Below are positions 6,001-12,000 of a stretch of 64,000 nt of DNA, piece by piece. Location: NCBI RefSeq assembly GCF_056712565.1, contig NZ_CM160072.1; one strand, 5' to 3'. The position numbers were made by a program. The stretch's first letter is position 1. The number at the start of each line of letters is the position of its first letter.

Positions 6001-9000
6001 ATACCACCGCCGATGTCTCGCTGGATAGAGTGGATGCCGGTTTTGCGATTACTAAAATCGCACTGAAGAGCGAAGTTGCGGTGCCGGGTATTGATGCCTC
6101 CACCTTTGACGGCATTATCCAGAAAGCAAAAGCAGGATGCCCGGTTTCTCAGGTACTGAAAGCGGAAATTACGCTGGATTACCAGTTGAAATCGTAAAGC
6201 GTTGCCGGATGACGCGTCAGGCGCGTGAATGCCTGATGCGTCAGCACAATCACATCAGGCTGAGAAGGGATTGTTGTGACATGGCTATGCGTTGTCGTTG
6301 TCCAACTAAACGTAGCGGAAATCACAGTATTTAAGTGACAGTGTCACGTTAAATAAAAACCCGCGAGTGCGGGCGAGAGGAATTTATCAGATTTTCAGCG
6401 GTAACACGCTGCTCATCCAGCCTGGAATTTCTTCGGCGGGCAGGGGGCGGGAAAAGAAATATCCCTGAATAACGCGACAGTGGATCTTGCGTAGCATCTC
6501 AAATTGCTCTTTGGTTTCGATGCCTTCCGCCACGACGGTTAAATTGAGGCTTTGCCCAATGCTGGTAATGGCTTCGAGTAAGGCAAGGATGCGTTTTTCG
6601 GTCAGACAACGATCGACAAAACTTTTATCAATTTTGATTTCCGTTACCGGAAGACTGACTAAGCGGGATAATCCGGAAAAGCCTGTACCAAAATCATCTA
6701 CCGATAAACCGATGCCCATATCGCGCAGGATCTGAATGCGCTTAAAGATTTCGGTATCGTGTTCCATCATCATGCTTTCCGTGATTTCCACCGTCAGCTG
6801 GTGGCCGTCAATACCCCAGGCGTGCATTGCATCAGATACCTGATTAGGCAGCTGATTACTGCGAAAGTGCAGCGCAGACAAGTTAACGGATAACGCCGGG
6901 ATATGAATATTCTGGCTACGCCATTCTGCTAACTGACGGCAAGCTTCCGCGATGACCCAGCGCCCAATATTTTCGATTTCACCAATCTCTTCTGCGAGAG
7001 GAATAAACCGTGAAGGGGGCACATGACCATGCAGAGGATCGTACCAGCGAGCAAGGGCTTCGATGCCGTACAGTTCACCCGTTTCTGCGAAGATTTGCGG
7101 CTGATAAACCAGTTTAAGTTGGTTATTGCTAATCGCTTCTTTTAGCGCTGCGCCTAAAACCAAACGCTCTTTTACCATTTCGTTCATCGCCGGGCTGAAG
7201 AACTGCCAGCCGTTACCGCCATTTTTGCGAATAAAATCCATTGCATTGTGAGCAGTGGAGAGCAGGTAATCGCGGTTTTTACCCTCGTCGTAGCTGATGC
7301 CAATGCTCAAGGTGAGCGGGAATGGTTTATCGTCAATCATTATCGGCTTGCTGACCACATTCCGTAGCTCATCGGCGATCTGGGTAATGTTACTGACATC
7401 GTTTTCCAGGCTCACGAGGACAAAAGACGCACCTTCAATACGACAGAGATACTGATCCGGTTTGAGTTTTTCACGAAAGCGATTGACCACTTCCAGCAAT
7501 GCCTGATCGGCCCACGCATAGCCAAGGCTATCAATCACATCCTGAATATGGTCAACACCGATGAGATACACCACCGGAGAGACGGCTTTGTCGACCAGGT
7601 CATCGAGGTAATTGTGCAGGTTATTGCGATTTGGCAGACCGGTCATCGGATCAAATTGGATGAGTTGTTCAATATGCTGACGGCTTTTTTCCTGTTCCAG
7701 CGCCAGCGCGGCCATATGCTGGCTGATATCTGCCACGCGTTCGATAAAGGCGCTGGTTTCTGCTCCTGACGAGGTTTTAATTTGCAGGATCCCCGCAGGC
7801 GCGCCATCGCGCTGACGAATGGTCGCTGACCAGCTTTGCGCATTTTGAACTTCTGCACCGTGCGAAGATGACGCCCAGTGTATCGGCATCCCGTTGCGCA
7901 GCGCGAACAGCGAAACATGCGATTCGTTGAGAACAGATTCGATGTTACGACAAATGATTTCCCCCATTTCATGAAATGGTGGGCTGCTGCACATGGCGGC
8001 GAGAATATTGCCTTCAAGCTGGCGGATTTGCCTTTCTTCGGTGATATCCGAGAATGTCATTACCAGGTTCTGCAGATGCGCGAGCACGTCATAAACCGGG
8101 CTGATAGAGGCTTTAATCCAGATTTTTTCACCGGTGCGCGTCAACAGCAGAAATTCGTCCTGATCGCGGGCGGTTTTCCATAGCAACTGCTGTAAACGAA
8201 TACGGTTATCAGCAGGGAATTCTGGAATGTTCAGGAGTGTATCGGGCTGCATACCGCTGGCTTCGTTAATGCAGTAACCAAACATTTCGGTAAATGCGCG
8301 ATTGCACTGCACAATATGGCGTTCCGGATCGAGGACAATCACCGGTCGGTCGAGATGGTCAACGGCAATAATCAATTGTCGGGTCTGTTCTTTTTGCGCC
8401 ATTTCTACGCTGGCATCCCGTACCAGCGCCAGGTAATAAACTTTCCCCTCGGCGCTCACTTTCGATAGCGCAAAACGGGTCCAGACTTTACTGCCGTCTT
8501 TTTTCTCCAGCTGCAGCTCTCGACTCATCCCCTCGACGCGCGCTTTACCACCTTCACGGTTGTGACGAATGTATTCAGGATGCGCAGGACGCAAATCCCG
8601 CGGAATCAGCATATCAATGTTATTGCCAATGACTTCTTCACGTTTGTACCCCCAGAGCTTCTCTGCGGCGGGGTTGAAAAACATCACTTCATCATTTTCG
8701 TTAATTAACACCGCGCCCATCATATTTTGCTCAAGGGCGGGGAAAAAAATGCCATCGGCGGCAGTATCCGCATCGGTTAGCTTCATGATTACCTCTGCAT
8801 CCTGGCGCATCTAAAGACTGGCTTTACAGAGTTCAACACGGTTTCTACCTCGTCTTTTGGCGATATACAGAGCTTCATCGGCTATTTGAATGAGGCGCTC
8901 ATAGTCAGGATGACCATTAAACATGGCGGCACCGATGGAAAGTGAGAGGGCAATATCCTCGCCGTTTGCGGCTTTAAAATAATGTCGACCTTTATGGTTA

Positions 9001-12000
9001 AACCGCAGGCCAAAATCAACCAAACACAACGTGCGAGATCGACTAACTGCACCATATTTTCCTGAAATATGAAGATATACTGAAAAGAAATAAGCGACTT
9101 AGGACAGTTTCAATCTACGCTACTGTTCTTCAGAAGAGTATAGCCCATCGTAATTATTTTTCGGTGACAGCGAATATCGTATGTTTTTTCATATTCATAC
9201 ATTTTTATTAGGGGGATTATGGCTGTTTAACTAAGTGTGGTTAATTGCGTGGTTAATTTGACGTATTTATGCATGATTGCTAGTGGGATAGTTCAAGAGG
9301 GTAACAAGCCAGTGGGTAAAGCACCGGCTTGTTACAAAGTAAGAATGGGAGTTTAACTGCCCCAACGACTTTGCAGATAGCTGACCGCTTGTTGCGTCTG
9401 CGGTTTATTCAGATAGTCCTCACGGAACAAGATTGTGCCGCTAATTTCCGGCACAGCATCGTTAAGATCGAGCTGCTTTTTCAGTTCCGGTACGCCGCCA
9501 TTAATCATCCAGTCTGGCTCTATCTTTGAAGGTTCACCCACTTTATAGAAGGCGATACCGATATACAGGCGGGTCCTGGTCGGTTTAACGACATCCGCCC
9601 ACCATTTTGCCAACACGTCATAACGCGCGGCACTCCGTGAGAATGGCCAGTAAATTTGGGGAGCAATGTAATCCAGCAACCCTTGTTCCACCCATCGACG
9701 GGTATCAGCGTAGGATTCGTCATAGGCTGCCGCACCTCGGGTATCGGAACCGAGCGGATCGTGTGATCGGTTACGCCACACGCCTGCCGGGCTAACGCCA
9801 AATTCGACTTCCGGCTTAATGCTTTTAATGGTGTGCGATACCTTCGCAATTAACTGCTGAGTATTGTTGCGCCGCCAGTCTGCTTTTGACGCAAATGCGC
9901 CGCCGTATTTGCGGTACGTTTCGTTATCATTTAGCCGTGAACCTGGTGACTCAGTATAGAAATAGTCATCAAACTGCACGCCATCTACTGGATAGCGGGA
10001 AACCACTTCCGCGACTATTGATGTGATCCAGTCCTGAACCTCAGGGATGCCCGGGTCGAGGACAAAGCGATCGCCGGACGTTCTGATCCAGTCGCGGTGT
10101 TGCACATAGACGCTCGCCGGTTGTTGAGACAGAGTGCTATTCAGTTCCCTGATAGTACCGGGCTTCGTATTAACCGATACGCGATAGGGGTTAAACCAGG
10201 CGTGTACTTTCATCCCACGCTTGTGGGCTTCGTCGAGCATAAATTGCAGCGGATCGTAACCCGGATTTTCACCAATCTTACCGGTCATAAGATCGGACCA
10301 CGGCAAAATTTTCGATAGCCACAGGGCAGTACCATCCGGCTTGACCTGGAAAAAGACCGTGTTTATGCCGAGACGTTGCAGATGATCCAGTTTGTCGATC
10401 ATCGCCTGTTGTTGTACACGTGCCCGGCTGGTGGGGTTACTAATGTTAACCGAGGAAACCGGTGGCCAGTCGAGGCGAGACACCGTGGCCAGCCAGATGC
10501 CACGCATCGGTTGTGACGATTGTTGCGTCGTGGCTGGTGGCTTTGAGCCCGCTGGTGGTGTCACCATGGACTCTGGAGGCGTGCTTTTACAACTACACAG
10601 TAAAAGTGCCAGTGCAACCAGTATCGCTGGTCTTCTAATCGCTAATTTCTCGTTTCGGGAGCAGATATCCATATGTGCTGGTTTCCGGTAAACAGATGTG
10701 CGCTCATTCTCGTACTTATCCCGGTTAAGTCAATACGACAACAAGCACGAAAAAGGGAGCGATGAATTATCGCTCCCTTGTCTTATAACCATTCAGACAT
10801 GGTTAGTGTTTCTTGTCATTCATCACAATATAGTGTGGTGAACGTGCACGCGGGTGCAGGAAGAAGTGACCTTTTGGTGCGTTCTGACTGTTGATTGGCT
10901 CCAGAGTGACGCCGGTATTCGCTTTGCTTTTACGATCATGAACAGCATAGAGAATAAAGGGCAGGGCAAGTACCACCAGGAAACTAACGACCAGTAATTC
11001 AACATACATATCGGTAGAGTCACCCTGGATGTTATCCGGCGGCAGGAAGGAAACAATAAACGCCATAATTGAAGTCAGCAGACCGACAATAGCCACGACC
11101 AGTTTCACCCCTTTACCACCAGGGATATTAAATGTGCGTTTTAAGTCAGGATGTTTAAGAACCAACACAATGTAGCCAATAAACAGCATGAAATAAGCAC
11201 ACAGATAAATCACCACCGTCAGCGCCAGTGCGATCAGGAAGGACATGTTGTTACCGCCACCGGTATTGGTGAGGATGATCAACGCGATAGAAGTAATCAC
11301 CAACTGCGAAATGACCAGCGTTACCGGTACGCCATTTTTGTTCATTTTAGCGAATGCCGCTGGCAGCAGGTTTTTCTGCGCTGTGACATACATCCCGCGA
11401 GAAGGACCAACAATCCAGGAAGCGATTTCCGCCAGAACACCCAGCAACAGCAGTGCGGAGATCACGCGAACCGTCCACTCAATTTCCGGTGCCACATGTG
11501 ACATCAGAACGGTAAAGGTTTGCATTACCCCTGCGGAGAGGTTGATTTCATTACCCGGAATGACCATCGCAATAGACAAACCGCCAACAGAGCTTAAGCA
11601 GATTGCCGCCACCATCAGCAGTAACATAGCCAGTGGATAGTCGCGCCCGGGGTTGCTCATTTCATTGACGTGGGTTGCGGAAGCTTCAACGCCCATATAA
11701 CTCAAAATGAAGGCAACAAATACAACCAGGGTGCCCACTTTAGAGAAGTCAGGGAAGAAGGTCTTCGCATCCATTTCGATAGCAACGGGGGCACCGGAGT
11801 GCAGATAAATAGCCGCTAATGCGATCAAAATAAATGCAGGTAACAGGATACCGGCGAAGAAGCCAACTTTAGCAATTCGCGCCGTGTATTTCGTGCCACC
11901 AAACTGCGTTAATGCCAGCGCCCAAAGAATGATGAGTGCTGCAATAGTTTTGGTAATGGGGTCTTCATTCAGCGCTGGCCATTTCAGGATGTAGGAGAGT

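Follow-up and report, generated by a model that had tools for sequence, protein, structure and literature searches.

In a 64,000-nucleotide stretch of Escherichia coli DNA (contig NZ_CM160072.1 of RefSeq assembly GCF_056712565.1; hereafter the window) we found that dosC, which in K-12 encodes the diguanylate cyclase partner of the phosphodiesterase DosP, has been cut by two deletions to a short remnant, and that the native upstream DNA of the dosC-dosP (dosCP) operon is kept in front of an intact dosP. This arrangement is very probably a fixed pseudogene scar that runs through a whole lineage of phylogroup B2 and extraintestinal pathogenic E. coli (ExPEC), with the operon's own promoter region preserved before dosP. 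In K-12, DosC and DosP form an oxygen-responsive cyclic di-GMP (c-di-GMP) module that tunes curli, poly-N-acetylglucosamine (PNAG) and RNA turnover. The gene dosC is also called dgcO or yddV, dosP is also called pdeO or yddU, and the neighboring digH is also called yddW.

Two deletions leave a bipartite remnant of dosC

Bases 8600-9500 of the window are a 100% match to E. coli DSM 30083 (= ATCC 11775; NZ_CP033092.2), and the type strain DSM 30083T belongs to phylogroup B2 (PMC4334874). In the RefSeq annotation the minus strand of the window reads osmC, dosP, a partial pseudogene labeled "diguanylate cyclase domain-containing protein", digH, gadC and gadB. The corresponding order in K-12 MG1655 is osmC, ddpFDCBAX, dosP, dosC (1383 bp), yddY (a small open reading frame, ORF, of 13 codons), digH, gadC and gadB.

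We aligned window 8600-9500 with the K-12 locus (our alignment reference L002) and found three blocks that are collinear with K-12. The first (window 8600-8975, L002 12548-12923, 376 bp, 98.7% identity) contains the dosP start, the spacer and the last 165 nt of dosC. The spacer (8787-8810, minus strand) is the native one and includes the dosP ribosome-binding site, AGAGG; its sequence is the same in K-12 and in all 15 genomes with the deletion allele that we aligned. The dosC part of this block (8811-8975, minus strand, L002 12759-12923) corresponds to K-12 dosC nt 1219-1383, that is codons 407-460 (54 codons) and the TAG stop, and encodes only the end of the GGDEF domain. The second block (window 8975-9021, L002 13454-13500) is identical to K-12 at 45 of 47 positions and corresponds to dosC nt 642-688; it forms an internal island of 46-47 bp (8976-9021, minus strand, nt 642-687 or 688) that encodes residues 215-229 of the middle domain. 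The third block (window 9022-9499, L002 14187-14651, 93.5% identity) runs from inside yddY through intergenic DNA into digH.

The breakpoints therefore lie at 8975/8976 and 9021/9022 of the window. Deletion A removed 531 bp (dosC nt 688-1218), which is exactly 177 codons (230-406) and in frame, and one T is shared at its junction. Deletion B removed 686 bp (dosC nt -44 to 641); with it went both the ribosome-binding site and the ATG, together with the globin domain and the beginning of the middle domain. We saw no microhomology at junction B, and the upstream breakpoint falls 44-45 nt before the former dosC ATG. In total 1217 bp of dosC are missing relative to K-12, and the island continues in frame into the GGDEF tail. 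A previous reading of the window from its sequence only had described a C-terminal GGDEF stub of 50-70 codons. The size agrees with the 54-codon tail plus the 15 middle-domain codons, and the tail is where that reading saw it; the island at 8976-9021 had been missed, so that the remnant is in fact bipartite.

A Pfam search of the 72-residue ORF in the dosC frame (8811-9029) matched only positions 115-161 of the 161-position GGDEF profile and 18 residues of DosC_2nd (positions 37-54), whereas K-12 DosC matched Protoglobin (PF11563), DosC_2nd and a complete GGDEF domain. The Protoglobin oxygen-sensor domain had no Pfam match in the stub, and by Pfam and alignment the GGDEF domain is incomplete and lacks the active-site motif. 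The remnant also has no start codon, since the ATG lies within deletion B, and no ribosome-binding site. RefSeq labels it a pseudogene, "incomplete; missing N-terminus". When K-12 DosC was used as a tblastn query, the window returned the two remnants and two distant GGDEF paralogues of 33% identity; neither a globin, nor any further DosC-like gene, nor a full-length copy of the 1383-bp gene was found in the window by this search. Each genome with the deletion allele has a single place that matches dosC. The loss of the DosC partner, which the sequence-only reading had proposed, is borne out by these results, and we consider this dosC, judged by its sequence, to be a non-functional remnant. An ancestrally short gene is ruled out: the pieces match the full-length gene as collinear fragments and have no start codon.

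The two paralogues lie at window 40560-40949 and 58357-58818, both on the minus strand, and are about 33% identical to the GGDEF domain of DosC. From synteny with CFT073 they are probably a yneF/dgcF-like gene and dgcZ.

The deletion allele is widespread

We searched 5426 complete E. coli genomes, a collection without phylogroup labels, at a cut-off of at least 80% query coverage. A 106-bp query spanning both junctions was found in 1047 genomes (19%). With queries for the single junctions, 1054 genomes matched at junction A and 1047 at junction B, and point divergence at the junction plausibly accounts for the seven extra genomes with junction A. Identical junctions in these 1047 independent complete genomes rule out that the scar arose in assembly. 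At least 80% of dosC was present in 4294 genomes, segment A in 4302 and segment B in 4353, and about 50 genomes had segment B without segment A. Two of the latter, strains 98197 and N25, were examined and have lost dosP and the 3' part of dosC through other deletions. Strain 2022H048, in which the island at first went undetected, has the same architecture as the window with extra single-nucleotide changes in the island.

The 15 aligned genomes include CFT073, the Nissle-derived SYNB1934, LF82, an O25b:H4 sequence type 131 (ST131) strain and isolates from dog, monkey and the environment. CFT073, Nissle, LF82 and ST131 are strains that we take to belong to B2. In all 15, including these named strains, the junctions are base-for-base the same as in the window, and a 12-bp duplication further upstream is shared as well. 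This indicates that the lesion is a single old allele. Five of the 15, an ST131-type clade, have an additional 1-bp frameshift in the stub, as expected for dead sequence.

The operon has also been damaged independently elsewhere. The deletions in 98197 (locus L005, 4000-4704) and N25 (locus L006, 3988-4248) affect the same operon in the reverse way, in that dosP and the 3' part of dosC are lost and ddp is kept, and IS1 insertions also lie inside dosC. The dosCP locus has been inactivated repeatedly.

The native dosCP promoter region is retained

The DNA upstream of junction B (9022-9352, minus strand, L002 14187-14504 and onward) is 331 bp long, has a GC content of 37.5% compared to 46.8% for the window, and ends at the stop codon of digH, the intact upstream neighbor (9353-10672, minus strand, by RefSeq and ORF listing). 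The sequence-only reading had noted about 320 bp of AT-rich DNA reaching the yddW stop. The base composition and the end point are as it described; the length is 331 bp, and the DNA proved to be the native intergenic region. All 318 bp of the K-12 dosC-digH intergenic DNA beyond the breakpoint are kept at 93.5% identity, and the segment is nearly invariant across the 15 genomes.

Transcription start sites (TSSs) for this operon have been mapped in K-12. Cho et al. 2014 (BMC Biol 12:4, Table S6) list a transcription unit "dosC;dosP" with a TSS at U00096.2 position 1565225 on the minus strand (29 reads), with sigma70, sigmaS and sigmaH binding, and a second "dosC;dosP" TSS at 1565252 (5 reads). 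In the array table of the same study dosC (b1490) is strongly RpoS-dependent; the gene is not mentioned in Peano 2015. We converted these positions by +1976 bp to U00096.3 (1567201 and 1567228), then to L002 (14202 and 14229) and to the window (9037 and 9064, minus strand). The offset holds for gadB and yddW, whose TSSs in Table S6 it places 28 and 27 nt before the respective start codons. The positions equivalent to the two K-12 TSSs thus lie 15 and 42 nt upstream of junction B, within the retained DNA, and the dosP start codon is now about 250-280 nt away from them compared to about 1.47 kb in K-12.

Since the native upstream DNA with both K-12 TSS positions is retained, dosP needs no new promoter, contrary to what the sequence-only reading had concluded. 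We considered the alternative that the deletion took the operon promoter with it and that a new promoter, arisen in the AT-rich DNA or at the junction, now drives the orphan dosP. The low GC content of the region would suit such a promoter, as would a sigma70-like match on the minus strand at 9244-9216 and the 12-bp duplication that is specific to this allele. The AT-rich DNA is, however, the native dosC upstream region, 93.5% identical to that of K-12; both K-12 dosCP TSSs map upstream of the breakpoint; and the lone promoter-like match from our consensus scan is within chance, with 1 found and 1.7 expected. Taken together we regard a newly acquired promoter as quite unlikely.

The 12-bp duplication (AATTAACCACGC/AATTAACCACAC) occupies 9235-9258 on the minus strand and shows up as a 12-bp gap when aligned with K-12, where the unit is present once; it is present twice in all 15 genomes with the deletion allele. 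A candidate sigmaS-type -10 element (GCTATACT, 9144-9137, minus strand) was rejected because the motif occurs at chance level (3 found, 3.7 expected) and matches no TSS of Table S6. The one match in an Rfam scan of 8700-9450, to rli61, was a chance match below threshold (20.8 bits against a cut-off of 50 bits).

A hairpin at the 3' end of digH predates the lesion

A 14-bp hairpin had been placed at 9299-9333 by the sequence-only reading. The structure is real and lies two bases further on, at 9301-9335 (minus strand), starting 17 nt past the digH stop. On the minus-strand RNA it has 14 pairs, including one G.U pair, with a folding energy of -21.7 kcal/mol (z = -7.3); the K-12 homologue has -23.9. 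The sole difference from K-12 changes a G-C pair to G.U on the minus-strand RNA, and the equivalent on the plus strand is an A.C mismatch, which fits a role in a minus-strand transcript. The hairpin is not a rho-independent terminator: the stem is strong, there is no U-tract (tail CCUCUUGAACUAUCCC), and it was not called by a terminator scan. Since it is conserved in K-12, it is unrelated to the lesion; it belongs to the digH 3' end and predates the damage to dosC.

Small ORFs at the scar

YddY has been detected as a protein in K-12 by epitope tagging (PMC6001520), which is an independent sign of transcripts that cross the retained part of the region. In the window the yddY ATG lies at 9055, within the retained part. 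Its reading frame now crosses the junction, giving a predicted ORF of 57 codons (8882-9055, minus strand, from the ORF listing) compared to 13 in K-12, and this ORF is open in 15 of 15 genomes. At position 9059 ATCC 11775 has a private change that turns the yddY ribosome-binding site from AGGAG to AGGAA; K-12 and the other 14 genomes with the deletion allele have AGGAG.

These ORFs raise the question of whether the remnant is still alive, with a small protein made from either the 72-residue dosC-frame ORF (8811-9029) or the 57-residue yddY ORF having gained a function, for example in modulating DosP. Translation of YddY in K-12, the open yddY-derived frame in all 15 genomes and the in-frame fusion of the island to the GGDEF tail would be consistent with this. 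The dosC-frame ORF, however, can start only at a TTG and lacks a ribosome-binding site, is frameshifted in the five ST131-type genomes, and contains no catalytic GGDEF element. Over such a short divergence an open yddY extension carries no statistical weight, and the yddY ribosome-binding site is weakened in ATCC 11775. Moreover, deletion of c1919 in CFT073 gave none of the motility or biofilm phenotypes reported by Spurbeck et al. 2012. We therefore consider a functional small protein from the scar to be highly improbable.

dosP is intact and has lost both of its neighbors

The dosP gene (6387-8786, minus strand) encodes a protein of 799 residues, of which 788 are identical to K-12 (98.6%) with no gaps, and the RefSeq annotation, K-12 alignment and Pfam agree with the sequence-only reading that it is intact. 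Pfam matched PAS (two stretches), GGDEF and EAL (E = 3e-69), the full-length architecture of a heme-PAS, PAS, degenerate GGDEF and EAL c-di-GMP phosphodiesterase. The residues aligned to K-12 H69 and M87 (799-residue numbering) are unchanged, as is the EAL motif "GIEALARW". We take H69 and M87 to be the heme axial ligands, His77 and Met95 in the 807-residue numbering of the EcDOS literature.

The degenerate GGDEF motif of DosP differs from K-12 at residues 453-454 (window 7428-7433), reading EGASF here and EGTQF in K-12. The 14 dosP alleles that we compared from genomes with the deletion allele do not vary at codons 453-454, and the change appears to be lineage-wide.

In the RefSeq annotation dosP is intact in 13 of the 15 sampled genomes with the deletion allele. 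Within this group dosP has 39 polymorphic codons, of which 25 differ only synonymously and 14 change the amino acid; pN/pS is 0.16, or 0.14 by pairwise Nei-Gojobori sums, in a sample that is small (15 genomes) and with statistics that ignore phylogeny. Between ATCC 11775 and K-12, dN/dS for dosP is 0.084. As far as such sequence comparisons can tell, this indicates that dosP has remained under purifying selection, with occasional lineage-specific loss.

On the other side of dosP the ddpXABCDF operon, which in K-12 fills about 6.1 kb of the osmC-dosP interval, is missing, and the interval in the window is 6198-6386. The sole ddp residue is a 62-bp fragment (island 6243-6303) that is 79% identical to an internal part of ddpF. 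A REP-like (repetitive extragenic palindromic) palindrome (GCCGGATGACGCGTCAGGCGCGTGAATGCCTGATGCGTCAGC, 6200-6245) lies after osmC, where the ddp deletion has its left edge, and K-12 has it too. The distance from osmC to the dosP stop is about 190 bp in 12 further genomes with the deletion allele and in 2022H048, and the gene order is the same in CFT073. With dosC and ddp both lost, dosP stands without either neighbor in this lineage.

Proposed expression of the orphan dosP

We propose that the deletions joined the native dosCP promoter and the first 16-43 nt of its transcript, by way of about 210 nt of dosC debris, to a dosP that has its own ribosome-binding site. dosP would most likely still be transcribed from this promoter, which in K-12 is bound by sigmaS and sigma70, as a monocistronic mRNA whose leader would be about 250-280 nt long. 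This would make DosP an oxygen-sensing c-di-GMP phosphodiesterase that stands alone, without its cognate cyclase, and that is presumably active in this strain.

Several observations weigh against this proposal or complicate it. The sequences upstream of 9037 and 9064 are not strong consensus promoters and the consensus scan found nothing there, and that the promoter would fire in this strain is deduced from K-12 TSSs whose read counts (29 and 5) are modest. A clear single-deletion intermediate did not turn up among the genomes searched, and the two deletions may have arisen in either order or in one complex event. Finally, dosP itself has decayed in some strains with the deletion allele, by a frameshift in CFT073 (locus L004, 8209-10610) and by a W45* stop in 2022H048 (locus L007, 1077-3476). 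These two losses are independent, which shows that the selection to keep dosP is not absolute.

The CFT073 frameshift also bears on an earlier listing. Spurbeck et al. 2012 list c1918 and c1919 as CFT073-specific "DGCs" (diguanylate cyclases). From their position and listed features these most likely represent the damaged dosP and the remnant of dosC, and the frameshift would explain why they were listed as strain-specific.

Decay of dosP could mean that the whole dosCP locus is on its way out and that dosP is a functionless passenger which has yet to gather lesions. The damaged alleles of CFT073 and 2022H048 fit such a view, as do the stop codon reported in dosP of the uropathogenic E. coli strain B-11870 (PMC5635171) and the other lineages that lost dosP along with the 3' half of dosC. 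In contrast, 13 of the 15 sampled dosP genes are full length, with 25 synonymous against 14 non-synonymous codons and a pN/pS of 0.16 or 0.14, whereas the neighboring stub, with a length of only 165 nt, has picked up a frameshift in 5 of 15. Both flanks, dosC and the ddp operon, were deleted, and dosP was spared. We therefore think it unlikely that dosP is only a passenger and favor a retained, natively expressed dosP.

Relation to known dosCP loci

The locus shares with K-12 dosCP its position between osmC/ddp and digH-gadCB, the yddY start, both TSS positions, the dosC-dosP spacer and a DosP of 98.6% identity. It differs from K-12 in lacking the dosC ribosome-binding site and ATG, the globin domain, most of the middle domain and the GGDEF core, as well as ddpXABCDF.

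The loss of dosC is already known, being both annotated by RefSeq and published, and the novelty implied by the sequence-only reading does not hold for ExPEC, ST131 or CFT073. Loss of yddV/dosC in ExPEC and B2 strains was reportedly described by Povolotsky and Hengge in 2016, to judge from what others cite of that work. The gene yddV is among those absent from ST131 (PMC5654935), it has been described as truncated or deleted in many ExPEC, and DosC was found to be frequently absent, with DosP present or carrying a stop (PMC5635171). The lesion behind these reports and the one in the window are the same. The ExPEC papers examined give absence or truncation only. To them we add the anatomy of two deletions with a 47-bp island, the retention of the promoter region and TSS positions, the 57-codon yddY extension, the allele frequency of 19% and the selection signal in dosP.

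In Shigella flexneri, dgcO (S1870) has a truncating deletion and pdeO/dosP is still listed (PMC11327459). This is an independent loss of functional DosC/DgcO in a pathogenic E. coli lineage. Compared by description only, the Shigella truncation removes the GGDEF domain, whereas the window allele has lost the N-terminal part and keeps the GGDEF tail.

It is possible, if doubtful, that selection in the B2 ancestor favored the loss of DosC with a promoter-proximal DosP kept, a pathoadaptive rewiring that turned a balanced, oxygen-sensing cyclase-phosphodiesterase pair into a pure, more strongly expressed, sigmaS-driven and oxygen-gated c-di-GMP sink. If this were so, the trimming of dosC and ddpXABCDF around a selected dosP would reflect that selection. 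A variant of this idea, and a more remote one, is that the extended yddY ORF of 57 codons encodes a new microprotein. The DosC cyclase is missing from about one fifth of complete E. coli genomes, among them major ExPEC lineages and the background of the probiotic Nissle; these genomes keep the phosphodiesterase behind the original promoter. This is relevant wherever the c-di-GMP wiring of K-12 is extrapolated to clinical strains.

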